Shown here piece by piece: positions 13,442 through 59,316 of a stretch of 64,000 nt of DNA. Position numbers and translations under genes: made by a program. The notes under the pieces are model-generated. The model saw only the letters and a list, made by a program, of their open reading frames with translations, made no database searches and was not told the origin of the DNA. This stretch comes from Escherichia coli (GTDB taxonomy: Bacteria > Pseudomonadota > Gammaproteobacteria > Enterobacterales > Enterobacteriaceae). The number at the start of each line of letters is the position of its first letter. The stretch's first letter is position 1. The DNA is taken from the NCBI RefSeq assembly GCF_003019035.1, contig NZ_CP027447.1. The stretch is one strand, 5' to 3'.

Positions 13442-13456
13442 AGGCAGCTCCTGCAA

Positions 13457-14131
13457 TTAAATTTTGTCACTAATATAGTTGCCATGGTCATCGATAATGG
13501 TCAGATGCCAGTTATTCGCATTATTACTTTTGACATTAATACTCTGACTTTCTAAGGGGGCAATCATAATAGTTTCATAATTGACTTTGACATTATTAGC
13601 TTTGACATCCGAAATCGTCACCCAATTTGCTGAGTCATTTTTTATCACCAATCCATTGCCACTGCGATTTACCCGTAACTTTTTAAATGTCGCTTTATTT
13701 ACCGGTGCAATACCCGCAGGCCGGTAAAACAATTTGATTCTGTTTTGCATTGCAAATTTCAGTGCATTCTTGCCCTCTTGCTCTGGACTATTTGGTGGAA
13801 TATCCAGAACATTCAGATAAAAAATGCTCTCTTTATTAGTGGGCAGTTTATTCGGCATAATTTTGATTTTTACTTGCTGCCCGGAATTTGCCCCTATTTT
13901 TGCCACTGGTGGCGTTAACATGAAAGGAACCTGAATTTTTTCTGGTGGTAACGACGTATCACCATCATCAATCCACGCCTGCAGCAGCGAAGAACGGTTT
14001 CCCTGATTCATCAACTGCACCATCACTTCTTTATTTTCTGCCGGGTAAATAATACGCGTCCCGTAGATAACAATACCGGCATGTGCAGGAAGGACCATAG
14101 AAGAAATGAGTAAAGCAAATAATCCTTTCAT
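13457..14131 (-). CDS. yehC: Periplasmic fimbrial chaperone (PapD-like), 224 aa
   Basis: Signal peptide MKGLFALLISSMVLPAHA followed by chaperone-like sequence; sits between major subunit and usher genes. Confidence 0.88.
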   Translation of the reverse strand: MKGLFALLISSMVLPAHAGIVIYGTRIIYPAENKEVMVQLMNQGNRSSLLQAWIDDGDTSLPPEKIQVPFMLTPPVAKIGANSGQQVKIKIMPNKLPTNKESIFYLNVLDIPPNSPEQEGKNALKFAMQNRIKLFYRPAGIAPVNKATFKKLRVNRSGNGLVIKNDSANWVTISDVKANNVKVNYETIMIAPLESQSINVKSNNANNWHLTIIDDHGNYISDKI

Positions 14132-14150
14132 CTTAATGCCTCTTAAATTA

Positions 14151-14180
14151 AAAGGCCGCCATGGGGATAGCGGCCATGTT
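14151..14180 (-). terminator. Putative intra-operon hairpin/attenuator between yehD and yehC
   Basis: GGCCGC..(9 nt)..GCGGCC hairpin (14155-14175); on the minus strand it is followed by a U-rich tract (plus-strand AAAA/TTAAATTAA); such partial terminators after the major pilin gene are common in fimbrial operons. Confidence 0.4.
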
Positions 14181-14211
14181 TATTACCTGGAGAAACTTGA
14201 AATTTTATTTA

Positions 14212-14754
14212 TTAATCCTGCGCCACACGCATAACCAGAGAAGATAACACATCACCTGATTGCACTGAATTATCTGTCAGCTTCAGGTATTTTGCTTTAA
14301 ACGGAATAGCATATTGACCTTCCGCTGTTTTATAACTCTCAATGTTAAAAGGTGCAGAAACATCCAGGACATCGCTGTTATCACCTAAATAGAGATAGTA
14401 CCCCACGGTATCGTTGCTACTGGCTATCGCCTTATCGTTTCCGGTTATTTTATCGTTGGTAATCAACGAGAGTTTTACACCAGCAACTTCTTTCGGACAG
14501 CTAATTTTTAACATGCTGCTGGTTACACCGACTGCATCATCATAGGTCGAGTATTTAGCTTTACCTTCAAAGACAGTGGTTGGTACAGTTGGCATATTAA
14601 TACTTACTGAATCGCCACCCGCTTCGAATTTACACGGAGATTCTGCAATATTCCCTTTAATGGTTAATGTTCCGGTATCAACGTCTGCGGCAAATACCCC
14701 AGCGCTCATAAAAAAAGAAGAAAAGACAGCGGCAGCAATAATTGAACGTTTCAT
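14212..14754 (-). CDS. yehD: Fimbrial major subunit-like protein, 180 aa
   Basis: Signal peptide MKRSIIAAAVFSSFFMSAGVFA, pilin-like size and conserved Cys pair; first gene of the cluster with long AT-rich upstream region. Confidence 0.9.
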   Translation of the reverse strand: MKRSIIAAAVFSSFFMSAGVFAADVDTGTLTIKGNIAESPCKFEAGGDSVSINMPTVPTTVFEGKAKYSTYDDAVGVTSSMLKISCPKEVAGVKLSLITNDKITGNDKAIASSNDTVGYYLYLGDNSDVLDVSAPFNIESYKTAEGQYAIPFKAKYLKLTDNSVQSGDVLSSLVMRVAQD

Positions 14755-15049
14755 AATATGTTCCTTAATAAAATTTATTTTTTGGTTGTTAAGAGTCTGT
14801 ATCTCTTGGAAACAAATTTCTCACATCAAAAAAGTTGCTGCAATGTAAACATATTGTTTTATTGATTTAAAACAAATTAACTATTGCAATATAAATACAA
14901 CAAATACTTAAGCATATTAAATATTTATCACATCTATTAATTAATGCGGATTTTTGTAAATGGTATTATTGATATCAATAAAAAAGCTGAAATCATTCAC
15001 ACGAATGATTTCAGCTTTCTAAATCCGATTAAAAAACCAGGGTGGCAAA

Positions 15050-15331
15050 TTAATCGTAGCGATTTAACACGATTCGACGTTTGCTATCGCTACCTGCAAC
15101 AACCACTTCTGTCGTTACACCTTTGACTGGCGAAGAAACCTGATGACGGGTATCAACATCATACGTTAACTGACCACAATGCTGTTGAGGTTGACCATTA
15201 ACCATAGCCATACTGCATGTTGGGGGACTGATCCTGCCATTAATCGTTAATGTGGCAGTCTGTGAAGAGAACGCGGGAGAAGCCATTCCATAGGCAAGAA
15301 AAATAATTCCTGACAGCCAGTACTTATTCAT
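15050..15331 (-). CDS. yehE: Small secreted protein of unknown function (93 aa) upstream of the yeh fimbrial genes
   Basis: Signal peptide MNKYWLSGIIFLAYGMASPAFS; recalled as YehE. Confidence 0.8.
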   Translation of the reverse strand: MNKYWLSGIIFLAYGMASPAFSSQTATLTINGRISPPTCSMAMVNGQPQQHCGQLTYDVDTRHQVSSPVKGVTTEVVVAGSDSKRRIVLNRYD

Positions 15332-15593
15332 TGAACGTTATCCCTGTAGTAAAGGTTATGCCTGGATAGAATGAGTGCATAACAAACTATAGCTGTACAT
15401 CCACTACACAGCCACGAAGGATGATAATGAAGCATTGCCTGTACGATCAATCGACTTTATAGAGTTTCGGACGAAGGTCCGCAGAATATTTGCAGCATTA
15501 AATAAGTGTTCATTAATGCGGCAAAAACAAATACACCGCATCAATGTAACATCTCTGCGGTGTATGAAAAACAACCAAAAAGGTTAATACGCG

Positions 15594-16703
15594 TTAGACC
15601 GCGCGGAAGGAAATCTCGCCAGGAATGACTTCTCCCTGCCAATAAAGCTGGGCTGCAACGCGGTCAGCCAGCTGGCGGTAGATAGCGGTAAATTCGCTCT
15701 CCGGACGGCTGATAACCGTTGGCGTGCCTTTATCGAGATCTTCACGTAAGGAGATGTGTAACGGCATCTGCCCCAGCAACTGCGTGTGGTATTTCTCGGC
15801 CAGTTTCTCTGCACCACCGGTACCGAAAATCGGTTCATGGTGACCACAGTTACTGCAAATATGCACACTCATGTTCTCGACAATACCGAGCACCGGAACC
15901 TCGACTTTCTCGAACATCACAATGCCTTTTTTCGCATCGATCAACGCAATGTCCTGCGGGGTGGTGACCACTACCGCGCCAGTTACTGGAATGTTTTGTG
16001 CCAGTGTCAATTGAATGTCACCGGTGCCTGGCGGCATATCAAGCACCAGATAGTCGAGATCCGGCCACAAGGTTTCCTGCAACATTTGCATTAACGCCTT
16101 GCTCGCCATCGGACCACGCCACACCATCGCATTGTCGTCAGTGACCAGATAACCAATTGAATTGGTTGCAAGGCCATGAGACATAATCGGTGCCATGTGG
16201 GTACCGTCCGGCGAAGTTGGACGCTGATTTTCTGCGCCCAGCATGGTGGGGATTGATGGGCCGTAGATATCGGCGTCCAGAATGCCGACTTTCGCCCCTT
16301 CCGCCGCCAGTGCCAACGCCAGGTTTACCGCCGTGGAAGATTTACCCACGCCGCCTTTACCGGAACTGACCGCAATGATGTTCTTCACGCCATTAATACC
16401 CGGCTGATTCTTCACGCGTTTTAAGGTGGCGATATTGTGCGACAGTTTCCAGTCGATAGCTTTCGCCCCGGTGATACGCAGCAGTTCGGCGCTACATTGC
16501 TCTTTTAACTCTTCGAACGCGCTATGCCAGACGAATGGCATAACCAGTTCCACATGCAACGTGTCGTCCATCCAGGCGACATGGTGCAACGCTTTCAGCG
16601 TGGTGAGGTTATGCTTCAGGGTTGGGTGCTGAAAATTGGCCAGTGTCCCGGCGACCATTGCGCGCAAGGCTTCTGGTGATTTGGCCTGGGATTGTTCGTT
16701 CAT
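15594..16703 (-). CDS. mrp: Fe-S cluster carrier P-loop ATPase (Mrp/ApbC/NBP35 family), 369 aa
   Basis: Deviant Walker A SSGKGGVGKSSTAVNLA and CxxC motif (CSNCGHH); divergent from metG. Confidence 0.95.
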   Translation of the reverse strand: MNEQSQAKSPEALRAMVAGTLANFQHPTLKHNLTTLKALHHVAWMDDTLHVELVMPFVWHSAFEELKEQCSAELLRITGAKAIDWKLSHNIATLKRVKNQPGINGVKNIIAVSSGKGGVGKSSTAVNLALALAAEGAKVGILDADIYGPSIPTMLGAENQRPTSPDGTHMAPIMSHGLATNSIGYLVTDDNAMVWRGPMASKALMQMLQETLWPDLDYLVLDMPPGTGDIQLTLAQNIPVTGAVVVTTPQDIALIDAKKGIVMFEKVEVPVLGIVENMSVHICSNCGHHEPIFGTGGAEKLAEKYHTQLLGQMPLHISLREDLDKGTPTVISRPESEFTAIYRQLADRVAAQLYWQGEVIPGEISFRAV

Positions 16704-22842: not shown

Positions 22843-25800
22843 ATGGACAAGGAATTACCGTGGCTGGCGGATAACGCGCAACTGGAACTGAAATATAAAA
22901 AGGGTAAAACACCACTCAGCCATCGCAATTGGCCGGGTGAACCGGTGCCTGTTATCACTGAAAGCATCATCCAGACACTGGGTGATGAATTGCTACACAT
23001 TGCTGAGAAGAAAAAAAACATTGTCTGGCGTTATGATAATTTTTCACTGGAGTGGCAGTCCGCCATCACGCAGGCCATCAACTTGATCGGCGAACACAAA
23101 CCCTCAATCCCGGCCCGGACAATGGCGGCGCTAGCCTGTATCGCGCAAAATGATAGCCAACAGTTACTCGACGAAATCGTCCAACAAGAGGGACTGGAAT
23201 ATGCGACTGAAGTGGTGATTGCACGCCAGTTTATTGTACGGTGTTATGAGAGTGATCCTCTGGTAGTAACATTGCAGTATCAGAAGGAGGACTATGGCTA
23301 TGGCTATGGCTATGGCTATGGCTATGGCTATGGTTATCGCTCAGAAACCTATAACGAATTCGATCTCCGACTGCGTAAGCATCTCTCTCTGGCAGAGGAA
23401 AGCTGCTGGCAGCGTTGCGCCGACAAACTCATTGCCGCACTGCCAGGACTACCCCAAGTTCGCCGTCCTTTTATTGCACTCATCCTCCCGGAAAAACCAG
23501 AAATCGCCAATGAGTTGGTAGGCCTTGAATGCCCGTGGACTCATTTTCATTCTAAGGAGTGGTTAAAAGTTGTTGCTACTGACCACAGGGCAGTGGGAAA
23601 ACTCGAACGCTACTGGAGCCAGGATATATTTAGCGATCGCGAAGCCAGCTACATGTCGCATGAAAACCACTTCGGCTACGCGGCCTGCGCCGCCCTTTTG
23701 CGCGAACAAGGAATTGCAGCCGTTCCACGCCTCGCGATGTATGCCCATAAAGAAGATTGCGGTAGCCTGCTGGTACAAATTAACCATCCGCAGGTCATCC
23801 GCACCCTGCTGTTAGTTGCTGATAAAAACAAACCCAGCCTGCAACGTGTGGCTAAATACAGTAAAAACTTCCCCCATGCGACGCTTGCCGCACTGGCAGA
23901 GCTTCTGGCGTTAAAAGAACCGCCTGCACGCCCTGGTTATCCAATCATCGAAGACAAAAAGCTGCCTGCACAGCAAAAAGCTCGAGATGAATACTGGCGT
24001 ACGCTGTTACAAACGCTGATGGCATCGCAGCCACAACTGGCAGAAGAGGTGATGCCGTGGTTAAGTACTCAAGCCCAGGCAGTGCTGAATAGTTATTTAT
24101 CGGCACCGCCCAAAACGGTTATTGATAGCACCGATAACATCCAAATGCCTGAAATCCTCGTTTCACCACCGTGGCGTAGTAAGAAAAAAATGACAGTTCC
24201 ACGTCTTGATTTGGCACCGTTCGAATTAACGCCGCAAGTTTACTGGCAACCAGGCGAACGAGAGAGGCTTGCCGCCACTGAGTCTGCCCGTTATTTCAGC
24301 ACGGAATCTCTTGCGGAACGCATGGAACAAAAAAGTGGACGAGTTGTATTACAGGAGCTGGGTTTTGGAGATGATGTATGGCTGTTTTTGAATTATATAC
24401 TCCCCGGAAAACTGGATGCTGCACGCAATTCACTCATTGTTCAGTGGCATTACTACCCAGGGCGGGTTGAAGAGATCATGAATGGCTGGAGCTCCCCGGA
24501 AGCTCAATTAGCAGAACAGGCGCTTCGCAACGGTCACGTAGAAGTGTTAATTAACATATGGGAAAATGACAGCTACTCACGCTATCGTCGGGAAAAGAGT
24601 ATCTGGAACCTGTATTTATTGGCGCAGTTGCCGCGTGAGATGGCTTTGACTTTCTGGCTACGTATCAATGAGAAAAAGCATCTGTCTGCGGGTGAGGACT
24701 ATTATCTCAGTATCTTCGGATTGGATGCTCTACCAGGTCTGCTGTTGGCTTTTTCACATCGTCCAAAAGAAACATTTCCATTAATTTTAAATTTCGGCGC
24801 AACAGAACTGGCCCTGCCCGTTGCCCGCGTCTGGCGACGTTTCGCGGCGCAGCGTGATCTGGCTCGCCAGTGGATTTTACATTGGCCGGAACATACAGCT
24901 ACTGCACTTATCCCTCTTGTCTTCACCAAATCCAGCGATAATAGCGAAGCTGCATTACTTGCCCTGCGTTTACTTTACGAACAGGGACATGGCGAGTTAC
25001 TGCAAACCGTGGCAAACCGCTGGCAGCGTACAGATGTGTGGCCTGCCCTGGAGCAATTACTTAAACAGAGTCCAATAGAGATTTACCCGACACGCATTCC
25101 AAAAGCCCCTGATTTCTGGCAGCCGGCAATGTGGTCCAGGCCGCGCCTTATCACGAATAATCAACCTGTTACCGATGACGCTCTGGAAATTATCGGCGAA
25201 ATGCTGTGCTTTACCCAGGGCGGACGTTTTTATAGCGGACTGGAACAACTGAAAACTTTCTGCCAGCCGCAAACGCTGGCAGCTTTTGCCTGGGATCTCT
25301 TCACCGCGTGGCAACAAGCTGGTGCTACCGCAAAAGACAACTGGGCATTTCTGGCGTTAAGTCTCTTTGGCGACGAAAGCACGGCACGGGATCTGACGAC
25401 ACAGATCCTTGCCTGGCCACAAGAGGGCAAATCTGCCCGTGCTGTCAGTGGTCTGAATATACTTACTCAGATGAATAATGATATGGCACTGATACAGCTG
25501 CATCATATATCGCAACGGGCGAAATCCCGCCCCTTACGTGATAACGCGGCGGAATTTCTTCAGGTGGTCGCAGAAAATCGTGGGCTAAGCCAGGAACAGT
25601 TAGCGGACAGATTAGTCCCAACACTGGGTCTTGATGATCCGCAGGCGTTGAGTTTTGATTTTGGTCCCCGGCAGTTTACCGTTCGCTTTGATGAAAACCT
25701 TAACCCGGTTATCTTTGATCAGCAAAACGTTCGCCAGAAAAGCGTTCCCCGGTTGCGCGCCGATGACGATCAACTGAAAGCGCCCGAGGCACTGGCCCGA

Positions 25801-26505
25801 CTAAAAGGGCTAAAAAAAGATGCCACTCAGGTGAGCAAAAACCTGCTCCCACGTCTTGAAACTGCCCTGCGCACCACCCGACGCTGGTCGCTGGCAGATT
25901 TTCATTCTCTGTTTGTTAATCATCCCTTTACCCGCCTGGTTACTCAGCGATTGATATGGGCGGTTTATCCGGCAAATGAACCGCGTCGTTTACTCAACGC
26001 CTTTCGTGTGGCCGCTGAGGGGGAGTTCTGCAATGAGCAAGATGAGCCAATTGACCTGCCTGCCGATGCTCTGATTGGCATTGCCCACCCGTTAGAAATG
26101 ACAGCAGAAATGCGCAGTGAATTTGCACAGCTTTTTGCCGATTACGAAATTATGCCGCCTTTTCGCCAGTTGACGCGGCGCACAGTGCTGCTCACGCCTG
26201 ACGAGTCAGCCAGTAATAGTTTGAATCGCTGGGAAGGTAAATCTGCTACCGTTGGGCAGCTTATGGGAATGCGATACAAAGGCTGGGAGTCAGGCTATGA
26301 GAACGCATTTGTCTATGACCTGGGCGAGTACCGGCTGGTCCTTAAGTTTTCATCCGGTTTTAACCACTACAATGTTGATAGCAAAGCGCTAATGAGCTTC
26401 CGTTCTCTTCATGTATACCGTGACAATAAATCTGTCACTTTTGCCGAACTTGATGTGTTTGATTTGAGTGAAGCGTTAAGCGCACCCGACGTCATTTTCC
26501 ATTAA
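22843..26505 (+). CDS. yehI: Giant uncharacterised protein (1220 aa), tandem paralog of molR; C-terminal region of the type annotated DUF4132
   Basis: AAGGAAAGA RBS; shares blocks with molR (..QEGLEYATEVVI.., ..DLRLRKHLSLAEES.., ..GPRQFTVRFDE.., ..LFADYEIMPPFRQL..); contains in-frame Tyr-Gly repeat. Confidence 0.88.
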   Translation: MDKELPWLADNAQLELKYKKGKTPLSHRNWPGEPVPVITESIIQTLGDELLHIAEKKKNIVWRYDNFSLEWQSAITQAINLIGEHKPSIPARTMAALACIAQNDSQQLLDEIVQQEGLEYATEVVIARQFIVRCYESDPLVVTLQYQKEDYGYGYGYGYGYGYGYRSETYNEFDLRLRKHLSLAEESCWQRCADKLIAALPGLPQVRRPFIALILPEKPEIANELVGLECPWTHFHSKEWLKVVATDHRAVGKLERYWSQDIFSDREASYMSHENHFGYAACAALLREQGIAAVPRLAMYAHKEDCGSLLVQINHPQVIRTLLLVADKNKPSLQRVAKYSKNFPHATLAALAELLALKEPPARPGYPIIEDKKLPAQQKARDEYWRTLLQTLMASQPQLAEEVMPWLSTQAQAVLNSYLSAPPKTVIDSTDNIQMPEILVSPPWRSKKKMTVPRLDLAPFELTPQVYWQPGERERLAATESARYFSTESLAERMEQKSGRVVLQELGFGDDVWLFLNYILPGKLDAARNSLIVQWHYYPGRVEEIMNGWSSPEAQLAEQALRNGHVEVLINIWENDSYSRYRREKSIWNLYLLAQLPREMALTFWLRINEKKHLSAGEDYYLSIFGLDALPGLLLAFSHRPKETFPLILNFGATELALPVARVWRRFAAQRDLARQWILHWPEHTATALIPLVFTKSSDNSEAALLALRLLYEQGHGELLQTVANRWQRTDVWPALEQLLKQSPIEIYPTRIPKAPDFWQPAMWSRPRLITNNQPVTDDALEIIGEMLCFTQGGRFYSGLEQLKTFCQPQTLAAFAWDLFTAWQQAGATAKDNWAFLALSLFGDESTARDLTTQILAWPQEGKSARAVSGLNILTQMNNDMALIQLHHISQRAKSRPLRDNAAEFLQVVAENRGLSQEQLADRLVPTLGLDDPQALSFDFGPRQFTVRFDENLNPVIFDQQNVRQKSVPRLRADDDQLKAPEALARLKGLKKDATQVSKNLLPRLETALRTTRRWSLADFHSLFVNHPFTRLVTQRLIWAVYPANEPRRLLNAFRVAAEGEFCNEQDEPIDLPADALIGIAHPLEMTAEMRSEFAQLFADYEIMPPFRQLTRRTVLLTPDESASNSLNRWEGKSATVGQLMGMRYKGWESGYENAFVYDLGEYRLVLKFSSGFNHYNVDSKALMSFRSLHVYRDNKSVTFAELDVFDLSEALSAPDVIFH
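23293..23334 (+). repeat. In-frame hexanucleotide microsatellite (TATGGC)6 + TATGGT encoding a (Tyr-Gly)n tract inside yehI
   Basis: Six perfect TATGGC units 23293-23328 plus one TATGGT, in the yehI reading frame; absent from the paralogous position in molR. Confidence 0.9.
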
Positions 26506-35830: not shown

Positions 35831-37512
35831 GCCTCGTCCCTCCATGGTAGTCGTAACGTTATTCGGGTGTAACTATCAGGCTCACAGGCGACGCTTATCC
35901 CATAGTCATCGCCAAACCGTTCACGTAAACGCTTATCCACCAGATTCATCCCCAGCCCACTGGCATTGGTTACCGGTTGATACAAACCGGCATTGTCTTC
36001 GATCTCCAGCATCAAATGTTGCCCCTCACGTCGGGCGCTGATTGCCACTCGCCCTGTATCCAGCAGTTGTGATGTCCCATGTTTAATGGCGTTTTCCACT
36101 ATCGGTTGCAGGGTAAACGCGGGCAATTGCTGCTGGGATAATTCTTGCGGAATAGCAATGTTGACCTGCAACCGCGACTGGAAGCGCGCCTTTTCAATTT
36201 GCAGATAAGCGTTCACATGTTCAATTTCGTCGGCGAGAGTAACAAACTCCGAAGGCCGCTTTAAGTTTTTGCGGAAAAAAGTGGAAAGATACTGCACCAG
36301 CTGGCTGGCCTGTTCGCTGTCGCGGCGGATCACCGCTTTAATGGTGTTAAGCGCATTAAACAAAAAATGGGGATTCACCTGGGCGTGAAGCAGTTTGATC
36401 TCTGACTGGGTGAGCATCGCTTTTTGCCGCTCATATTGCCCGGCGAGGATCTGCGCCGAAAGCAGTTGCGCAATCCCCTCACCCAGCGTGCGATTGATTG
36501 AACTGAATAAACGGTTTTTGGCTTCATACAATTTGATGGTACCCATCACTCGCTGATTTTCACCACGCAACGGAATGACCAGCGTCGACCCCAGTTTGCA
36601 TTGCGGATGCAAAGAGCAACGGTAAGGCACTTCGTTGCCATCAGCGTAGACCACTTCACCGGTTTCAATCGCTTTTAAGGTGTAAGTCGAAGAAATCGGT
36701 TTGCCGGGTAAATGGTGGTCGTCACCAATTCCGGTAAAGGCCAGCAATTTCTCTCGATCGGTAATCGCGACTGCACCAATATCCAGCTCCTGATACAGCA
36801 CCTGTGCCACTTTCATGCTGTTCACTTCGTTAAACCCCTGACGCAAAATGCCTTCCGTCGAGGCCGCCACTTTCAGCGCAGTGGCAGAAAAAGCTGAAGT
36901 GTATTTTTCAAACATCGCGCGTTTATCGAGCAATATACGCATAAACAGTGCCGCGCCGACGGTATTGGTGACCATCATTGGCGCAGCAATATTACTCACC
37001 AGACGCACCGCATCTTCATAAGGTCGGGCGATCGCCAGGATGATCAACATTTGCACCATTTCAGCGACGAACGTAACGGCACCGGCGGTAATGGGGTTAA
37101 AGACTTTATCAGTGCGCCCGCGACGGATCAGGATGCTGTGTACCAGGCCGCCGAGCAATCCTTCAACGATGGTCGAGATCATGCAACTTAGCGCGGTCAT
37201 GCCCCCCATCGAATATCGATGTAACCCGCCGGTCAGACCAACCAGCCCACCGACGACCGGACCGCCGAGTAAGCCGCCCATTACCGCGCCTATCGCACGG
37301 GTATTGGCAATAGAATCGTCAATGTGCAACCCAAACCAGGTGCCCATGATGCAGAAGATGGAAAAGACGATGTAGCAGAGAAATTTATGCGGCAGACGAA
37401 CCGTGACCTGCATTAACGGTATGAATAATGGCGTTTTACTCATTAACCACGCAATGACTAAAAAAACGCACATCTGCTGAAGCAGCAGCAACACCAGATT
37501 AAAATCGTACAT
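35827..37512 (-). CDS. btsS: LytS-type sensor histidine kinase (5TM Lyt-GAF-HisKA/HATPase), 561 aa
   Basis: N-terminal polytopic membrane domain, C-terminal kinase motifs (..[16 protein letters not shown].., ..[18 protein letters not shown]..); start ATG 37510-37512. Confidence 0.92.
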
Positions 37513-37733
37513 ACCCGCAAACCACACTTCCCTTTAAAACGCGTAACATACATTGCCTGCGTTTAACTTTCTTTGAACTCTTGCAGAAAAATGAGAATTC
37601 GTGAGTATGATCACTCAAAATCGCCTGGCAAAAATAAAATCACCCTATAGATGCACAAAAAACGGGCAAAACTACCTGGTTCGCAAAACTGCGTCTAAAG
37701 TTAAACCGGGACCTCGCGAGCAAGGGTGAGACG

Positions 37734-38465
37734 ATGGCGCTTTACACAATTGGTGAAGTGGCGTTGCTTTGTGATATTAACCCTGTCACGTTACGCGCGT
37801 GGCAGAGGCGTTACGGATTGCTGAAACCGCAACGGACAGACGGCGGTCATCGGCTGTTCAACGATGCCGATATTGACCGGATCCGCGAGATCAAACGCTG
37901 GATCGACAACGGCGTGCAGGTCAGCAAAGTTAAAATGCTGCTCAGTAATGAAAATGTTGATGTGCAGAACGGCTGGCGCGATCAGCAAGAAACATTACTG
38001 ACTTACCTGCAAAGCGGCAATCTGCATAGCCTGCGAACGTGGATCAAAGAGCGCGGTCAGGATTACCCCGCCCAGACACTCACCACGCACCTGTTTATTC
38101 CACTGCGCCGACGGCTTCAGTGCCAACAACCGACTCTCCAGGCGCTGCTGGCGATCCTCGACGGCGTACTGATCAACTACATCGCCATCTGTCTGGCTTC
38201 GGCGCGCAAAAAACAGGGTAAAGATGCACTGGTGGTTGGCTGGAATATTCAGGATACCACTCGTCTGTGGCTGGAGGGCTGGATTGCCAGTCAACAAGGA
38301 TGGCGCATTGATGTCCTCGCCCACTCGCTCAATCAACTACGCCCTGAACTGTTCGAAGGTCGTACATTGCTGGTGTGGTGCGGTGATAATCGAACCTCCG
38401 CCCAACAGCAGCAACTCACCAGTTGGCAGGAACAAGGCCATGATATTTTCCCACTCGGCATTTAA
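37734..38465 (+). CDS. mlrA: MerR-family transcriptional regulator (curli/csgD activator), 243 aa
   Basis: N-terminal MerR HTH YTIGEVALLCDINPVTLRAWQRRYGLL; recalled as MlrA/YehV. Confidence 0.92.
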   Translation: MALYTIGEVALLCDINPVTLRAWQRRYGLLKPQRTDGGHRLFNDADIDRIREIKRWIDNGVQVSKVKMLLSNENVDVQNGWRDQQETLLTYLQSGNLHSLRTWIKERGQDYPAQTLTTHLFIPLRRRLQCQQPTLQALLAILDGVLINYIAICLASARKKQGKDALVVGWNIQDTTRLWLEGWIASQQGWRIDVLAHSLNQLRPELFEGRTLLVWCGDNRTSAQQQQLTSWQEQGHDIFPLGI

Positions 38466-38524
38466 TGATTCGTTAACAAATGCGCTTTACTGTACAATCC
38501 TTTCGTTAACATAAGGAGTGCATT

Positions 38525-38632
38525 ATGCGCATAGCTAAAATTGGGGTCATCGCCCTGTTCCTGTTTATGGCGTTAGGCGGAATTGGTGGCGTCATGCTCG
38601 CAGGTTATACCTTTATTTTGCGTGCTGGCTGA
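38525..38632 (+). CDS. yohO: Small membrane protein, 35 aa
   Basis: AAGGAG RBS; translates [35 protein letters not shown] (single TM helix); 3' end overlaps the 3' end of yehW by 20 nt. Confidence 0.75.
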
Positions 38633-39344
38633 ACGCCTGCACCAGCCTTTCAAACAGGCGGTCTGCGATGATCGCCGCCAGTGCCACCAGTAATGCCCCC
38701 TGGATCACATACGCGGTATTAAATCCGCTAAGCCCGATGATGATCGGCGTACCCAGCGTGCTGGCCCCTACCGTTGAGGCGATCGTCGCCGTACCAATGT
38801 TGATAATCACCGAAGTTCGCACGCCCGCCAGAATCACCGGAGCCGCCAGCGGTAGCTCGACCTTACGCAGTCGCTGACCACGACTCATTCCCATACCTTT
38901 CGCAACTTCTGTCACGCTGGCATCAATCGCTCCCAGCCCGGCAAGTGTCGCCTGCAGGACGGGTAGCACACCGTAAAGGATCAAGGCGATAATCGCCGGT
39001 TGCAGGCCAAAGCCGATCACCGGAACGGCAATCGCCAGCACTGCAACGGGCGGAAAAGTCTGCCCAACGGCAGCAATAGTTTCCACCAGTGGGCGAAATT
39101 CCGCGCCCCACGGGCGAGTAACAATAATTCCTGCACCAGTGCCAATGATCACCGCAAACAAACTCGAAATTCCCACCAGCCAGAAATGAGCCAGTGCCAG
39201 AGCTGCAAAACTTTCTTGCTGATAAACGGGGCGTGGCAGTTGTGGGAACAAGGCAGCAAACAGCGGCTGGCTGTAAGGCAGCCAGAAAATCAGTGCCACA
39301 AACAAAGCAATGAGCCAGAACAGCGGATCGCGCAACATCTTCAT
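38613..39344 (-). CDS. yehW: Osmoprotectant ABC transporter permease, 243 aa
   Basis: Polytopic permease; operon yehZYXW on minus strand. Confidence 0.93.
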
Positions 39345-39348
39345 ACGC

Positions 39349-40275
39349 TTACGCCTCCACCAGCAGATCCTGAAAATGCAGCGTGCCGCAAGGCTGGCCC
39401 TGCGTGTTCATCACCGGCAGCACCTCGCATCCCCGCGCGACAAACAGGGAGAGCGCATCGCGTAGCGTCATCTCTTCTGCCAGTGCCTCACCTTCTGCAC
39501 GTTCTTCGCGACGCACGTAATCCGCCACACTACGTAACGAAAGCAGGCGCACACCCAGTTCACTACGTCCAAAAAACTGGCGAACAAAATCATTCGCCGG
39601 ACGAGTCAGCATCGTCAGCGGATTGCCCTGCTGCACCACTTCACCGTGATCCATCAATACCAGATGTTCTGCCAGCCGTAGCGCCTCATCAATATCATGA
39701 GTGACCAGCACAATAGTGCGCCCCAGCAAACGGTGAATGCGCGTCATCTCTTGTTGCAACGCGCCGCGCGTTACCGGGTCCAGTGCGCCAAAAGGTTCAT
39801 CCATCAGTAAGACTTGCGGATCGGCAGCCAGTGCGCGCGCCACTCCCACACGTTGCTGCTGACCACCGGAAAGCTGATGCGGATAACGCTCACGTAAATT
39901 TGACTCCAGCCCCAGTAGCGCCATTAATTCGTCGATACGATCGTCAATCCTCGCCCGCGACCATTTTTGTAATTGCGGCACGGTAGCGATGTTTTGCGCC
40001 ACGCTCCAGTGGGGAAACAGGCCAATAGATTGAATGGCATAGCCCATCCGGCGGCGCAACTCCAGCACTGGCAGCGAGCGAATTTCTTCTCCGGCAAAGC
40101 GGATCACGCCACTGTCATGCTCCACCAGGCGGTTAATCATTTTCAGAGTGGTGGATTTACCGGAGCCTGATGTACCAATCAGCACTGAAAAACTCCCCTC
40201 CTGAAAATTGAGATTGAGATCGTTAACGGCTTTTTGTGCGCCGAACAGTTTGCTGACATGGCTAAATTCAATCAT
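39349..40275 (-). CDS. yehX: Osmoprotectant ABC transporter ATP-binding protein with C-terminal CBS-like region, 308 aa
   Basis: Walker [13 protein letters not shown] signature LSGGQQQRV, Walker B LLMDEPF. Confidence 0.95.
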
Positions 40276-42497: not shown

Positions 42498-44795
42498 TTA
42501 CAGCAACTCAAACTCGCCTTTCTTAACGCGTGCGGAATCAGTGCCGATAAAGACATTGAACTTGCCAGACTCGGCGTCATATTTCATCTGTTGATTCCAG
42601 AACTTCAGCGCCTCGATATCAATCGGGAAGCTGACGGTCTGGGTTTCGCCCGGTTTCAGGGTGATTTTCTCAAAGCCTTTCAGCTGTTTTACCGGGCGAC
42701 TCATGGAAGCCGTCACATCCTGCAGGTACATCTGAACTACCGTCGCCCCTTCGCGCTTACCGGTGTTCGTCACCTGCACGCTGGCGGTCACTTTGCCGTC
42801 ACGCTTCATGGTCGGCGCAGAAAGTTTCACATCAGAGACGGTGAAAGTGGTATAGCTCAGACCATAGCCGAACGGATAAAGCGCCCCGTTAGCTTCATCA
42901 AAATAACGCGAAGTGTATTTGTTCGGCTTGTCGGCATTATACGGGCGACCGGTATTCAGATGACTGTAGTACACCGGGATCTGCCCGACAGAACGCGGGA
43001 AGGACATCGGCAGCTTGCCGGACGGGTTGTAATCGCCAAACAATACATCGGCAATTGCATTACCGCCTTCAGTCCCCGCAAACCAGGTTTCCAGAATCGC
43101 ATCCGCCTGCTGATCTTCTTTCACCAGCGCCAGCGGACGCCCGTTCATCAGCACCAGCGCCAGCGGTTTACCGGTGGCTTTCAGCGCCGCAATCAAGTCA
43201 CGTTGGCTTTGCGGAATAGTGATATCGGTACGGCTGGAGGCCTCGTGCGCCATCCCCTGAGCTTCACCGACCACAGCCACCACCACATCAGATTGCTTCG
43301 CGGTTTGCACCGCTTCATCAATCATCTCTTGCGGCGAGCGCGGATCAACTTTGACCGCCTCTTCATACTGATTCAGGAAATCGATAATGCCTTTGTCACT
43401 GGTAACGTTCGCCCCTTTGGCATACAGCACTTTACCGTTTTCGCCGACGGCGTTTTTAATCCCGGTCAGTACGGTCACAGATTGATCGGCAACACCGGCT
43501 GCTGACCAGCTGCCCATCACGTCACGTTTGCTGTCCGCCAGTGGCCCTACCACCGCAATGGTTGCCGTTTTTTTCAGCGGCAGCGTTTCAAGACGGTTTT
43601 TCAGCAACACCAGGCTTTCGCGCGCCACTTCACGCGCTTCTTTGCGGTGCAGGCGGCTTTCGGCATTGGTATCCACCGGGTCAGACTCTTTCGGACCGAG
43701 ATGGCTGTACGGGTCGTTAAACAACCCCATATCATATTTAACGTTCAGTACATGACGGGCAGCGTCATCCAGCTCTTCCATCGTCACTTTGCCGGATTTG
43801 ATCAACCCAGGCAGATACTTCGAGTAATACTCGTCGCTCATACTCATGTTGATGCCGGATTTCAGCGCCACGCGCACCGCATCTTCCGGGTCTGCCGCCG
43901 TGCCATGTTTAATCAGCTCTTTGATTGCGCCGTGATCGGAAACGGTGATGCCTTTAAAGCCCCACTGGTCGCGCAGAACATCTTTCAGCAGCCAGGAGTC
44001 GGAGGTGGCTGGCGTGCCGTTCAGCGAGTTCAGCGCCACCATCACCGCGCCGCTGCCTGCGTCCAGCCCCGCTTTGTACGGCGGCATATAATCATTAAAC
44101 AGGCGCTGCGGACTCATATCGACGGTGTTGTACTCTTTACCGCCTTCTACCGCGCCGTATGCGGCAAAGTGTTTGACGCTGGTCATCACCGAGTAGCGAT
44201 CTGCCGGGCTTTTACCCTGCATCGCTTCCACCATGGTTTTGCCCATTATTGAGGTGAGATACGTATCTTCGCCAAAACCTTCGGAAGCACGTCCCCAGCG
44301 CGGATCGCGCGAGACATCGACCATCGGTGCCCAGGTCATGTTCAGGCCATCATCTGCCGCTTCATAAGCAGAGACACGCCCGACTGTTTTCACTGCATCG
44401 AGGTTAAAAGACGAGGCCAGACCGAGGCTAATCGGGAACACCGTGCGCTGACCGTGCAGCACGTCGTAAGCAAAGAAAAGAGGAATTTTCAGGCGGCTTA
44501 ATTCCATCACCTGATCCTGCATGGCGCGGATATCCTGACGGGTTACGGTGTTGAAAATCGCCCCAACCTGACCGTCTTTGATCATCTCGCGGATCGCCTC
44601 TTTCGGGTTATCCGGGCCGACGCTGATTAAGCGCAGCTGACCAATTTTCTCATCAACTGTCATTTTCTTAAGCAGTTCGGTGACGAACGCATCCCGCGCT
44701 TCGGGCGTTAATGGATGGTTGCCGAATAAATCATCCGCCAGTGCTGGCTGCAGGGCCAGACTCACCGCGATTCCTACTGAACATAGCCATTTCAT
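42498..44795 (-). CDS. bglX: Periplasmic beta-glucosidase (GH3), 765 aa
   Basis: Start at ATG 44793-44795 (MKWLCSVGIAVSLALQPALA signal peptide), ORF-track extension rejected; GH3 two-domain architecture. Confidence 0.95.
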   Translation of the reverse strand: MKWLCSVGIAVSLALQPALADDLFGNHPLTPEARDAFVTELLKKMTVDEKIGQLRLISVGPDNPKEAIREMIKDGQVGAIFNTVTRQDIRAMQDQVMELSRLKIPLFFAYDVLHGQRTVFPISLGLASSFNLDAVKTVGRVSAYEAADDGLNMTWAPMVDVSRDPRWGRASEGFGEDTYLTSIMGKTMVEAMQGKSPADRYSVMTSVKHFAAYGAVEGGKEYNTVDMSPQRLFNDYMPPYKAGLDAGSGAVMVALNSLNGTPATSDSWLLKDVLRDQWGFKGITVSDHGAIKELIKHGTAADPEDAVRVALKSGINMSMSDEYYSKYLPGLIKSGKVTMEELDDAARHVLNVKYDMGLFNDPYSHLGPKESDPVDTNAESRLHRKEAREVARESLVLLKNRLETLPLKKTATIAVVGPLADSKRDVMGSWSAAGVADQSVTVLTGIKNAVGENGKVLYAKGANVTSDKGIIDFLNQYEEAVKVDPRSPQEMIDEAVQTAKQSDVVVAVVGEAQGMAHEASSRTDITIPQSQRDLIAALKATGKPLALVLMNGRPLALVKEDQQADAILETWFAGTEGGNAIADVLFGDYNPSGKLPMSFPRSVGQIPVYYSHLNTGRPYNADKPNKYTSRYFDEANGALYPFGYGLSYTTFTVSDVKLSAPTMKRDGKVTASVQVTNTGKREGATVVQMYLQDVTASMSRPVKQLKGFEKITLKPGETQTVSFPIDIEALKFWNQQMKYDAESGKFNVFIGTDSARVKKGEFELL

Positions 44796-56848: not shown

Positions 56849-58087
56849 ATGCCGCAACAAAATTATCTGGATGAACTCACTCCGGCTTTTACGCCTTTAC
56901 TGGCGATTAAAGAAGCCTCTCGCTGTTTATTATGTCATGACGCTCCCTGTAGTCAGGCTTGCCCGGCGCAAACTGACCCAGGGAAATTTATCCGCTCAAT
57001 TTATTTTCGTAATTTTAAAGGTGCTGCCGAGACAATTCGCGAAAATAATGCCCTCGGTGCCGTTTGTGCCAGAGTGTGCCCGACGGAGAAATTATGCCAA
57101 AGCGGTTGTACACGTGCCGGTGTTGATACTCCCATTGATATCGGTCGCTTACAGCGTTTTGTTACTGATTTTGAACAACAAACCGGGATGGAAATTTATC
57201 AGCCCGGTACTAAAACGCTCGGCAAAGTCGCGATTATTGGCGCGGGTCCTGCCGGATTGCAGGCCAGTGTGACACTGACAAACCAGGGTTATGACGTCAC
57301 GATCTATGAGAAAGAAGCACAACCCGGTGGCTGGTTGCGTAACGGCATTCCGCAATTCCGGTTACCGCAATCGGTGCTGGATGCAGAAATCGCCCGTATA
57401 GAAAAAATGGGCGTGACCATTAAATGCAATAACGAAATCGGTAACACACTCACCCTGGAGCAGCTGAAAGCGGAAAACCGCGCGGTACTGGTCACCGTGG
57501 GGTTATCGAGCGGTTCGGGGCTACCACTGTTTGAGCATAGCGACGTTGAGATTGCCGTCGACTTCCTGCAACGTGCACGACAGGCGCAAGGCGATATCAG
57601 CATTCCACAAAGCGCATTAATTATCGGCGGCGGTGATGTCGCGATGGACGTAGCCAGCACGCTGAAAGTTCTCGGCTGTCAGGCGGTAACCTGCGTAGCG
57701 CGTGAAGAGTTAGATGAGTTTCCGGCAAGCGAAAAAGAGTTTGCCAGCGCCCGGGAGTTGGGCGTTTCGATCATCGATGGATTTACACCTGTAGCCGTGG
57801 AAGGCAATAAAGTCACCTTTAAGCATGTTCGTTTACCAGGTGAACTAACGATAGCGGCGGACAAAATTATTCTCGCCGTCGGTCAGCATGCCAGACTGGA
57901 TGCCTTTGCGGAGTTAGAGCCGCAGCGTAACACCATCAATACACAAAATTACCAGACCCGCGATCCGCAAGTCTTTGCTGCTGGCGATATTGTTGAGGGT
58001 GACAAAACCGTGGTCTATGCCGTGAAAACCGGGAAAGAAGCCGCCGAGGCGATTCATCACTATTTAGAGGGAGCTTGCTCATGTTAA
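56849..58087 (+). CDS. preT: NAD-dependent dihydropyrimidine dehydrogenase subunit PreT, 412 aa
   Basis: AAGGAAGA RBS; N-terminal Cys cluster and GAGPAG dinucleotide-binding motif. Confidence 0.93.
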
Positions 58088-59316
58088 CGAAAGATCTTTC
58101 GATTACTTTTTGCGGCGTGAAGTTTCCCAACCCGTTCTGCCTCTCTTCTTCGCCTGTAGGCAACTGCTATGAGATGTGTGCCAAAGCCTACGACACAGGC
58201 TGGGGCGGCGTGGTGTTTAAAACGATCGGCTTTTTTATCGCCAACGAAGTCTCGCCGCGTTTTGATCATCTGGTGAAAGAAGATACCGGTTTTATCGGCT
58301 TCAAAAATATGGAGCAGATTGCTGAACATCCGTTGGAAGAGAATCTGGCCGCCCTGCGTCGGCTGAAAGAAGATTACCCGGACAAAGTATTGATCGCTTC
58401 AATCATGGGCGAAAATGAGCAGCAATGGGAAGAGCTGGCGCGTCTGGTGCAAGAAGCTGGCGCGGATATGATCGAGTGTAACTTCTCCTGTCCGCAAATG
58501 ACTTCTCATGCGATGGGTAGCGATGTCGGGCAAAGCCCGGAGCTGGTAGAAAAATATTGTCGGGCAGTAAAACGTGGTTCCACGCTGCCAATGCTGGCGA
58601 AGATGACGCCGAATATCGGTGATATGTGCGAAGTGGCGCTGGCGGCGAAGCGCGGCGGCGCAGATGGCATTGCGGCGATTAACACCGTTAAATCCATCAC
58701 CAATATCGATCTTAATCAGAAAATCGGTATGCCGATCGTTAACGGTAAATCGAGTATTTCCGGATATTCCGGTAAAGCGGTAAAACCGATCGCCCTGCGC
58801 TTCATTCAGCAAATGCGTACCCATCCAGAACTGCGCGATTTCCCGATCAGCGGTATCGGCGGCATTGAAACCTGGGAAGATGCGGCGGAGTTTTTATTGC
58901 TCGGTGCAGCGACGTTGCAGGTGACCACCGGCATTATGCAGTACGGGTATCGGATAGTGGAAGATATGGCAAGCGGGTTGTCGCATTATCTCGCCGATCA
59001 AGGGTTTGATTCGTTGCAGGAGATGGTAGGTCTGGCGAATCACAATATTGTCCCGGCGGAAGATTTAGACCGCAGTTATATTGTCTATCCCCATATCAAT
59101 CTTGATAAATGTGTTGGCTGTGGACGCTGTTATATTTCCTGTTACGACGGCGGTCACCAGGCGATGGAATGGAGCGAGAAAACCCGCACACCGCATTGTA
59201 ATACCGAGAAATGCGTGGGTTGTCTGCTTTGTGGTCACGTCTGCCCGGTGGGTTGTATTGATCTCGGAGAAGTGAAGTTTAAGAAAGGCGAGAAAGAACA
59301 CCCGGTAACGTTGTAG
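58081..59316 (+). CDS. preA: NAD-dependent dihydropyrimidine dehydrogenase subunit PreA, 411 aa
   Basis: Start ATG 58081 overlaps preT 3' end by 7 nt; DHOD-like barrel plus C-terminal 2x[4Fe-4S] motifs ([23 protein letters not shown]). Confidence 0.93.

Follow-up and report, generated by a model that had tools for sequence, protein, structure and literature searches.

Our analysis of the spacer between mlrA and yohO indicates that the decamer TTCGTTAACA, which occurs there twice as an exact direct repeat, is not the scar of a duplication and reads, by its sequence, as two copies of the ArcA-P recognition element. One copy falls within a published ArcA box, while the other is a second, predicted element, as strong as the published one and placed over the transcription start site (TSS), and it is this element that is new. 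The window throughout is the whole stretch of Escherichia coli DNA that was analysed, 64,000 nucleotides of contig NZ_CP027447.1. Since the gene, its tail-to-tail overlap with yehW and the binding of ArcA at its promoter are all in the literature, the finding is real but largely ordinary; the main gain is that the repeat acquires a concrete identity as ArcA-P elements, which matters little beyond the tidying of annotation. Promoter coordinates are also now given for this small-protein gene, on whose regulation the main-text literature is otherwise silent.

How could such elements act? We consider it probable that yohO is transcribed from a sigma-70 promoter which ArcA-P represses by occlusion under anaerobiosis, and that its Rho-ended transcript runs antisense into yehW. 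At low oxygen ArcB would phosphorylate ArcA, and ArcA-P would bind the yohO elements, probably spreading from one outermost element to the other, over ~54 bp that include the -10 hexamer; with the -10 covered, RNA polymerase would be excluded and yohO would be off. In air the promoter would be free, and a transcript of ~177 nt would run antisense into at least the last 69 nt of yehW, be stopped by Rho and then have its 3' end trimmed back to the stem at 38681.

The repeated decamer and the ArcA-P element

The preliminary description had already noticed a direct repeat in the mlrA-yohO spacer, and the repeat exists; its copies, however, had been placed at 38463-38472 and 38500-38509, off by 6 and 2 nt from the positions given in Table 1. 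The two copies were also said to bracket the promoter and the Shine-Dalgarno (SD) sequence. This holds for the -10 hexamer and the TSS but not for the SD, which lies downstream of copy 2. The rest of that description, namely the genes, their overlap and the antisense 3' ends, stands. It assigned the repeats no function.

Table 1. Coordinates of the features discussed, in window positions
Feature	Coordinates	Strand	Relative to TSS	Basis and remarks
mlrA CDS	37734..38465	+		upstream neighbour; ORF list, RefSeq annotation of identical DNA
ArcA DR2 (TCATTAAATG), weak half of published box	38459..38468	-	-46 to -37	1.56 bits in Park 2013 Table S4, 2.6 bits with rebuilt PWM
Decamer copy 1, TTCGTTAACA	38469..38478	+	-36 to -27	minus strand reads as ArcA DR1, 10-mer TTGTTAACGA at 38470-38479
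Conserved spacer block GCGCTT(T/C)AC	38482..38490	+	-23 to -15	alignment, 0.75 mean identity; unexplained
-10 hexamer TACAAT (TATAAT in most genera)	38493..38498	+	-12 to -7	alignment; position fits published TSS
Decamer copy 2, TTCGTTAACA	38502..38511	+	-3 to +7	minus strand reads as a predicted further ArcA DR, 10-mer ATGTTAACGA at 38503-38512
yohO TSS (G), 5' UTR of 20 nt	38505	+		Kim 2012 TSS table
Shine-Dalgarno AAGGAG	38513..38518	+		sequence; 0.93 identity across genera
yohO CDS, 35 aa	38525..38632	+		ORF; NCBIfam NF010225 equivalog; translation in the literature
yohO/yehW CDS overlap, 20 nt, both stop codons within	38613..38632	both		ORF list
yehW, final gene of osmF-yehYXW betaine ABC transporter operon	38613..39344	-		ORF and annotation
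yohO 3' UTR, antisense to yehW	38633..38681	+		ends just after GGCGG...CCGCC stem; Adams 2021 Term-seq, fold
Rho termination region, yohO strand, inside yehW	38863	+		Adams 2021 Supplementary file 2

On the minus strand both decamers read TGTTAACGAA, a perfect ArcA-P direct-repeat (DR) element of ~10 bits. With a DR matrix rebuilt from 241 published elements, from which yohO was excluded, both score 10.1 bits on that strand and stand among the 16 best of the 127,982 10-mers of the window (copy 1 in the top 0.0125%, copy 2 in the top 0.01%). The published ArcA box of yohO, TTGTTAACGAATCATTAAATG, with a DR1 of 10.0 bits and a DR2 of 1.56 bits (Park 2013, Tables S3 and S4; PLoS Genet 9:e1003839), is identical to window positions 38459-38479, and copy 1 supplies its DR1. 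The element at copy 2 is absent from Table S4, where yohO is entered as a two-DR site. The last codons and stop of mlrA (ATT TAA) overlap the weak DR2.

The arrangement is that of an ArcA-P operator, with at least two TGTTAA-like direct repeats in one orientation and in 11-bp phase, DR2 being weak: DR1 and DR2 are 11 bp apart, and DR1 and the copy-2 element 33 bp (3 x 11). Given a TSS at 38505, the elements cover -46 to -26 and -2 to +8, overlapping the region bound by RNA polymerase. With the rebuilt matrix, the second strong element has no good partner at +/-11 bp. Because GTTAAC is palindromic, the orientation of the elements is ambiguous in E. coli alone, and it is only the other genera that favour TGTTAA on the minus strand.

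The YohO protein and the overlap with yehW

The genes themselves are as first named: the DNA of E. coli LF82 is identical to our 501-nt query, and RefSeq there and in K-12 gives yohO and yehW with mlrA upstream. YohO matches the NCBIfam equivalog NF010225 over residues 1-35 of 35 at 80.1 bits (cut-off 57) and is thus a UPF0387 small membrane protein, with a single hydrophobic helix; Pfam PF27791 is given for its orthologues. Ribosome profiling or tagging had been proposed as a check on translation, and the protein has in fact already been detected, by top-down mass spectrometry (PMC12529367) and by ribosome profiling (bioRxiv 2020.05.05.079178, with Hemm 2008 cited there). Among 69 genome loci gathered with a degenerate DNA pattern for the core motif, besides a phmmer search of the full library, the frame is intact to the stop codon in all 69, and 67 of them are complete, with 34-37 aa; the remaining two are shortened at the N terminus, L053 by the edge of the locus and L067 because its ATG is out of frame with the core. 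Since the search pattern selected for the core, its invariance is not to be inferred from these loci, and variants do occur in the library clusters, for example GGISGV (P0004). A PDB sequence search with YohO gave no match, and a Pfam search only a sub-threshold one to B12D (E 0.36), a transmembrane-helix resemblance to B12D/MLRQ. We conclude that yohO is a genuine gene, that it is translated, and that it is transcribed from a compact sigma-70 promoter of its own with a 20-nt leader; the analysis also suggests that its product is a membrane protein expressed aerobically.

At its 3' end yohO shares exactly 20 nt with the convergent yehW, as had been described, and the mRNAs are indeed antisense there. 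The 3' end mapped by Term-seq, at K-12 2215813 or window 38681, lies 49 nt past the yohO stop and inside yehW, and is classed as primary for yohO and antisense for yehW (Adams 2021); the pair also figures on a published E. coli list of 165 convergent excludons (ExcludonFinder, NAR 2025). Termination is Rho-dependent, with a Rho score of 5.6 (p 9e-16) at K-12 2215995 (+), 231 nt past the yohO stop (Adams 2021, Supplementary file 2). Our scan for intrinsic terminators found none on the minus strand and, on the plus strand, one weak site, inside yohO, and a shared bidirectional terminator, that is a GC-rich hairpin with A- and T-tracts in the overlap, was not found. None of the folds computed for either strand or for the 177-nt mRNA was significant (z -1.9, -0.7 and -1.0), and an Rfam covariance-model scan of 37500-39500 gave no match at E <=1.

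In 65 of the 66 loci with yehW adjacent, the two coding sequences overlap by 17-26 nt, always 2 mod 3, and the promoter and its boxes stay with yohO whether it stands behind mlrA, btsS, metG or fepA. That yohO, its promoter and the yehW overlap move as one conserved unit across Enterobacteriaceae is a new point.

Does the overlap do anything? One possible reading, which we hold only tentatively and think somewhat doubtful, is that it works as a convergent excludon and couples the betaine transporter to redox state: transcription of yohO, which is high in air, would lower or process the osmF-yehYXW mRNA, through collision of polymerases or through cleavage of the duplex by RNase III. Documented overlapping transcripts speak for it, as does the retention of a one-phase overlap of 17-26 nt across many genera and four different upstream neighbours. 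However, the yohO transcript is scarce, with Term-seq scores of ~900-1100 where other 3' ends reach tens of thousands. Moreover, mutual constraint between the two tails may be enough for the overlap to persist, Sodalis does without it, and Erwinia and the locus L065 keep yohO with no yeh operon adjacent. The last of these also weakens the idea, which we had entertained separately, of YohO as an obligatory partner of YehW. If the overlap were regulatory, it would offer a clean case, amenable to genetics, of one mRNA that both encodes a small protein and serves as a cis-antisense RNA, but any antisense effect on yehW is so far a presumed one.

A more elaborate version would make the whole locus, with its obligatory same-phase overlap of 17-26 nt, a redox-to-osmoprotection switch, in which ArcA-P bridges 33 bp across the -10 to gate the promoter of the 35-codon gene, and in which, once ArcA lets go of yohO in air, the Rho-ended antisense RNA and/or YohO itself modulates osmF-yehYXW. 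We regard this as speculative and rather unlikely. Bridging between elements so spaced belongs to a class not described for ArcA.

Promoter conservation, ArcA occupancy and alternative readings

The TSS of yohO is taken from the Kim 2012 TSS table (U00096.2 2213659, 5' UTR of 20 nt, 2 reads) and was converted to window 38505 by means of an offset that we calibrated against the sequence of the ArcA box. That the TSS is supported by 2 reads weakens the positional argument. The promoter is not detected by a consensus scan because its canonical -35 is poor (TCGTTA, 3/6). The conserved block in the spacer does not share the phase of the DR elements. The -10 sequence of E. coli (TGTACAATCCTT) and the stretch around its SD (AAGGAGTGCA) are complementary, and we considered whether this pairing might hide the SD in read-through transcripts; RNAalifold on 24 genera gave no consensus pair, and the idea was dropped.

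The three DR cores have identities of 0.89-0.95 over 22 genus-level promoters (DR2 ATTTAA 0.93, DR1 0.95, copy 2 0.89), comparable to the -10 (0.94) and the SD (0.93), while the intervening columns fall to 0.47-0.59. At least one DR of at least 6 bits is kept in 57 of 64 distinct orthologous promoters, and 31 of these promoters have two exactly 33 bp apart.

ArcA is present at this promoter in vivo. The yohO peak in ArcA ChIP-seq and ChIP-chip, seen in both ChIP-seq replicates and centred at window 38493, is weak, with heights of 2.5 and 1.9 (Park 2013, Tables S1, S3, S4 and S8). Peak-to-motif offsets in the same table amount to tens of bp, so the centre cannot show which element is occupied, and we have dropped it as an argument for occupancy of both; the occupancy of the second element and repression by occlusion are what we infer. 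Both would be in keeping with what is known of ArcA, whose sites overlap the polymerase site at 52 of 66 repressed promoters and whose footprints of 57-60 bp span distal DRs (Park 2013). As to expression, yohO is classed there as lowly expressed with no called ArcA effect, its log2 level being slightly higher in the arcA deletion (7.77) than in the wild type (7.17), and in Shigella flexneri it falls by 2.96 log2 units (~8-fold) without oxygen, with no effect of FNR. In the parts of the supplements of the Federowicz 2014 ArcA study available to us, yohO, mlrA and yehW all go unmentioned.

The same conservation could be read otherwise. Although we think it unlikely, the TTAACA blocks might be conserved for promoter or leader reasons, the first as a contact near the -35 region and the second as initial transcribed sequence or an A-rich translation leader, so that the ArcA match and the weak ChIP signal would carry no functional consequence. 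Nearly all genera do keep each box at a fixed distance from the -10, 14 bp for the first and 7 bp for the second, and for this reason the 33-bp spacing could reflect promoter geometry rather than ArcA phasing; with so poor a -35, other upstream contacts may matter; and the absence of a called ArcA-dependent change in expression would be as expected. However, a TTAACA at 14 bp from the -10 is too close to be a -35 hexamer, and in most aligned genera the TTAACA of box 2 is followed by A or T, as position 1 of the DR prefers. Both the ArcA found at the promoter in vivo and the anaerobic, FNR-independent repression also argue for ArcA-P repression rather than for promoter geometry alone.

It is quite improbable that the repeat is the operator of some other regulator, one reading GTTAAC or the palindrome TTAATG-N3-CATTAA of box 1. 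In most genera box 1 does hold a perfect 6-3-6 palindrome, TTAATGnTTCATTAA, but in E. coli this is degenerate (CGTTAA), box 2 is without such a dyad, and we found no known operator consensus to match it; to our knowledge none of the MlrA, Fur, FNR, TrpR, PurR and Cra consensus sequences, compared by eye, fits the palindrome. An MlrA operator was looked for in its own right and rejected, since a single half-site, TGTACAAT, lies over the -10 with no second half, and only in Escherichia, Citrobacter and Intestinirhabdus.

Finally, coincidence in an AT-rich spacer has next to nothing left in its favour. The decamer is expected 0.09 times in the window and found 3 times. The third copy, at 58082-58091 (-), was set aside, as a coding ORF has its start-codon region there. 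Exact 10-mers repeated at short range are no rarity in the window, with ~13 distinct pairs within 60 bp against ~3 in Markov simulations, so that the repeat by itself is only modestly above chance, and such pairs are nothing extraordinary; what makes it significant is that it is conserved between genera and matches a known operator. The coincidence reading is already contradicted by the conservation data, with both cores as well kept in 22 genera as the -10 and the SD, and with the 76-nt promoter present in 5423 of 5426 E. coli genomes and at least 99% identical in 4089 of 5425 matching records. ArcA-P repression is the preferred reading.

Relation to known systems

As a convergent excludon, yohO-yehW resembles the other pairs listed by ExcludonFinder in that the plus-strand transcript ends inside the partner gene. 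It differs in that the overlap extends to the coding sequences, which share 20 nt, and in that one of the two genes has just 35 codons; the portion of the ExcludonFinder text we could consult reports neither reciprocal expression nor RNase III dependence for the pair.

As a protein, YohO is akin to the small (<50 aa) single-helix inner-membrane proteins of E. coli, such as CydX, AcrZ and MgtS, in its size and single helix, in having its own promoter and a strong SD, and in being detected only by tagging, ribosome profiling or top-down mass spectrometry. A set of small inner-membrane proteins of this organism was reportedly assembled by Hemm and colleagues in 2008. Unlike CydX, AcrZ and MgtS, YohO is without a known partner complex, phenotype or solved structure.

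The closest comparison for the promoter is with the ArcA-P operators of multiple direct repeats, such as those of paaA, phoH, trxC and dctA (Park et al. 2013, PLoS Genet 9:e1003839). The strong elements of yohO differ from these in that 33 bp separate them and no element can be recognised at the 11- and 22-bp positions, a spacing class not in Table S4 of that study, where the yohO entry comprises only DR1 and a DR2 of 1.6 bits. In other respects yohO is like them: it has TGTTAA-type elements in one orientation and in 11-bp phase, which overlap both +1 and the -35 region, its promoter is occupied by ArcA in vivo, and the gene is on in air and low without oxygen. Moreover, at paaA, phoH (22 bp) and dctA the distal elements are split by non-matching DNA, just as they are at yohO.

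The direct repeat and the yohO promoter

The window is Escherichia coli DNA. A 501-nt query around yohO is 100% identical to several genomes, LF82 among them, and has matches in 5423 of 5426 complete E. coli genomes; the RefSeq gene order is btsS (-), mlrA (+), yohO (+), followed by yehW, yehX, yehY and osmF (all -). The 76-nt yohO promoter is likewise found in 5423 of 5426 E. coli genomes, at 99% identity or better in 4089 of 5425 matching records. Over 221 aligned positions there are only 2 mismatches to K-12, both at or just past the stop codon of yohO, which is TGA in the window and TAA in K-12; the mlrA-yohO spacer shows no difference.

The preliminary description had placed a direct repeat around the promoter and Shine-Dalgarno (SD) region of yohO. 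An exact decamer repeat is indeed present, its two copies lying 6 and 2 nt higher than had been given; from the mapped positions it follows that the decamers flank the -10 hexamer and the transcription start, not the SD. The published start, supported by 2 reads only, is U00096.2 2213659 and gives a 20-nt leader; the listed promoter sequence ends ...TACAATCCTTTCG (Kim et al. 2012, PLoS Genet 8:e1002867). With the offset derived from the ArcA box sequence (window = U00096.2 - 2175154), this start is the G at 38505, 7 nt past TACAAT. The canonical -35 matches poorly (TCGTTA with a 17-bp spacer, 3/6), which is why a consensus promoter scan misses this promoter, while TTAACA, only 14 bp from the -10, is too close to serve as the -35 hexamer. 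In other genera the region upstream of yohO is a compact conserved promoter that reads ATTTAATGnTTCATTAACA - 14 bp - TATAAT - 7 bp - (G)TTAACA - 1-2 nt - AAGGAG - about 6 nt - ATG.

Features of the yohO locus and copies of the decamer; mean identity is to the consensus of 22 genus-level yohO promoter sequences
Feature	Window position	Strand	Position from yohO start	Mean identity	Remark
Decamer copy 1, TTCGTTAACA	38469-38478	+	-36 to -27	0.95 (TTAACA core, box 1)	exact direct repeat
Decamer copy 2, TTCGTTAACA	38502-38511	+	-3 to +7	0.89 (TTAACA core, box 2)	exact direct repeat
Third decamer copy, in start-codon region ATGTTAACGAA	58082-58091	-			coding sequence
ArcA DR2			-46 to -37
ATTTAA				0.93	11 bp upstream of box 1
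GCGCTT(C/T)AC block	38482-38490		-23 to -15	0.75	between box 1 and -10
-10 hexamer TACAAT	38493-38498	+	-12 to -7	0.94
yohO Shine-Dalgarno			+9 to +14	0.93
Columns between conserved promoter blocks				0.47-0.59
yohO	38525-38632	+			ORF list, 35 aa
yehW	38613-39344	-			ORF list

Three further observations concern transcription here. A second weak start assigned to yohO (2 reads; Kim 2012) lies within mlrA at U00096.2 2213369, window 38215 (+), 310 nt ahead of the yohO start codon. A minor sigma factor, probably RpoE, gave a weak genomic SELEX peak of intensity 4.0 at U00096.2 2214150, between yohO and yehX, which is about 38996 in the window and inside yehW (Shimada 2017). Over 38491-38522 in E. 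coli, the sequences of the -10 (TGTACAATCCTT) and SD (AAGGAGTGCA) regions are complementary; that such pairing hides the SD in read-through RNA was rejected, no conserved pairing being found across 24 genera.

Taken alone, the repeat is weak evidence, since exact 10-mers repeated at short distance are, as a class, not rare: about 13 pairs no more than 60 bp apart occur in the window, counted outside one hexamer tandem array, versus about 3 in first-order Markov simulations. The decamer itself is found 3 times versus 0.09 expected, and its significance is decided by conservation and identity rather than by repetition. The third copy, unrelated to yohO, falls in the start-codon region of a coding ORF that begins near 58081 (+) and overlaps the end of ORF 56849-58087. 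Elsewhere, a (CTATGG) x 8.3 tandem repeat at 23292-23341, possibly variable in length, codes for a (YG)8 run within a 1220-aa yehI-like ORF (22843-26505, +), and a sequence of about 15 nt (CACCAGCGCC...) recurs locally as a direct repeat 30 bp apart at 43122-43167.

ArcA elements at the yohO promoter

Read on the other strand, TTAACA is TGTTAA, the core motif of the direct-repeat (DR) elements recognised by ArcA-P, and this identification was checked against published data. Both ChIP-seq replicates of Park et al. (2013, PLoS Genet 9:e1003839, Tables S1, S3, S4) have an ArcA binding region at yohO, and the ArcA box predicted under the peak, TTGTTAACGAATCATTAAATG on the minus strand, maps exactly onto window 38459-38479, so that copy 1 is the published DR1 (10.0 bits); its weak partner, DR2 (1.56 bits), lies over the last codons of mlrA. 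A 10-bp matrix was rebuilt from 241 published DR elements, yohO excluded. With it copy 1 scores 10.1 bits, which reproduces the published value, and copy 2 (ATGTTAACGA at 38503-38512 on the minus strand) likewise reaches 10.1 bits, the two ranking in the best 16 of the window's 127,982 10-mers. Copy 2 is absent from Table S4, which files yohO as a two-DR site and whose spacing classes are 10-12 and 22 bp; it lies 33 bp from DR1, that is, three 11-bp phases, and has no good DR partner at +/-11 bp. The window's top-scoring DRs also include several at 13100-15600 (e.g. 14505-14514 and 13215-13224), which agrees with the yehB-intragenic and yehD ArcA sites of Park 2013.

At least one minus-strand DR of at least 6 bits occurs in 57 of 64 distinct orthologous yohO upstream sequences. 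Two such elements stand exactly 33 bp apart in 31 of the 64, one pair (Enterobacter sp. Bisph1, -86/-53) sitting off the box 1 and box 2 positions. Promoter geometry, and not ArcA phasing, could account for this fixed spacing. It is kept in one locus (L006) despite an altered distance to the ATG; in the Citrobacter freundii group (L003, L009, L017, L018, L032 and others) the phase is lost through a deletion of 8 bp between box 1 and the -10. A canonical ArcA box with 11-bp spacing is made up there by elements at -55 and -44, and the element nearest the start has often degenerated to TTCACA. No recognisable ArcA elements lie upstream of yohO in Siccibacter, Erwinia and Sodalis. The GCGCTT(C/T)AC block does not share the phase of the ArcA elements and matched no operator that we recognised.

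The best-supported mechanism, and the one we favour, is that under micro-aerobic or anaerobic conditions ArcA-P would occlude the yohO promoter. ArcA is mainly a repressor, with sites overlapping the polymerase binding region at 52 of 66 repressed promoters, and sigma-70 occupancy drops anaerobically at 56 of 65 ArcA-repressed, polymerase-overlapping promoters (Park et al. 2013). Its footprints reach the outermost DRs even over 22 bp or more of non-matching DNA, covering 57-60 bp at paaA and phoH and likewise spanning the distal DRs at dctA (Park et al. 2013); at yohO the outermost elements cover a stretch of about 54 bp (-46 to +8). The direction of the expression data fits this mechanism: yohO of Shigella flexneri is 2.96 log2 units lower without oxygen, with no significant FNR effect, and in anaerobically grown E. 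coli yohO is slightly higher in an arcA deletion strain than in wild type, log2 7.77 versus 7.17 (Park et al. data), yohO being placed among lowly expressed operons with no called ArcA effect (Park et al. 2013). The ArcA ChIP signal at yohO is weak, with peak heights of 2.5 and 1.9, and the searched supplements of a second ArcA study do not mention the locus. The peak centre (38493) falls between the two decamers and cannot tell which is bound, because peak-motif offsets in that table amount to tens of bp.

YohO and its overlap with yehW

Along its entire length YohO matches the NCBIfam equivalog 'protein YohO' (80.1 bits, cut-off 57). Whether it is translated, a check proposed in the preliminary description, is already answered by published top-down mass spectrometry (PMC12529367), which bears out yohO as a translated small protein gene; none of the solved structures searched contains it. 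With phmmer the full library yielded only 17 representative clusters, all with the YohO core or its variants; several of them evidently result from frameshifts or fusions. A search of 100,044 species genomes with a degenerate DNA pattern for the 11-residue core found 69 loci, nearly all in Enterobacteriaceae, plus Erwinia and Sodalis. The ORF is in frame to its stop codon in all 69 and complete at 34-37 aa in 67, the exceptions being cut by the locus edge (L053) or having an ATG out of frame with the conserved core (L067). A contig labelled Chryseobacterium sp. 18061 (L066) carries an enterobacterial btsS-mlrA-yohO-yehW locus with YohO identical to that of Citrobacter sp. 18056 (L069), and is probably contamination or mislabelled.

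The ORF list confirms the convergent overlap with yehW proposed earlier, 20 nt including both stop codons, and the antisense 3' ends of the two mRNAs are already published, yohO-yehW being one of 165 convergent excludons in E. coli MG1655 (ExcludonFinder, NAR 2025). Term-seq places a 3' end, primary for yohO and antisense to yehW, at K-12 2215813 (+), and a Rho termination region is listed in the same study at 2215995 (+; Rho score 5.6, p 9e-16) (Adams et al. 2021, eLife 10:e62438); these are window 38681, right behind a GGCGG...CCGCC stem, and 38863. Therefore the yohO mRNA is about 177 nt long and is antisense to 69 nt or more at the 3' end of the yehW coding region; before termination by Rho, nascent transcripts extend about 250 nt into yehW. 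Neither yohO nor yehW has a predicted intrinsic terminator, and no Rfam family matches at the locus.

Where yehW adjoins, the overlap is 20 nt (40 loci), 26 nt (17), 23 nt (7) or 17 nt (1), always 2 mod 3; the sole non-overlapping case among 66 such loci is Sodalis, with a 10-nt gap. We consider a regulatory role for the overlap rather unlikely; alternatively, mutual constraint simply freezes it. The upstream gene varies (mlrA, btsS, metG or fepA), which indicates that yohO, its promoter and the yeh operon travel together and that mlrA is incidental. Two arrangements have no adjacent yeh operon: in Erwinia (L014, L029, L061) a CMAS-type methyltransferase and a DUF3833 lipoprotein precede yohO and an MFS sugar-type transporter follows, and in one further locus (L065) yohO is flanked by a roxA-like gene and bglX. 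Since yohO is retained there, the function of YohO is not strictly dependent on YehW.

Relation to published work

Published work already covers yohO and its translation, the overlap with yehW, the transcription antisense to it and the binding of ArcA to the promoter, the last in supplementary tables only, and our findings would not surprise a specialist. What is new is modest: the direct repeat represents two equally strong ArcA elements, the second previously untabulated; these can be placed relative to the published start; they are conserved across genera to the level of the -10 and SD; and the same-phase yohO/yehW overlap is deeply conserved.
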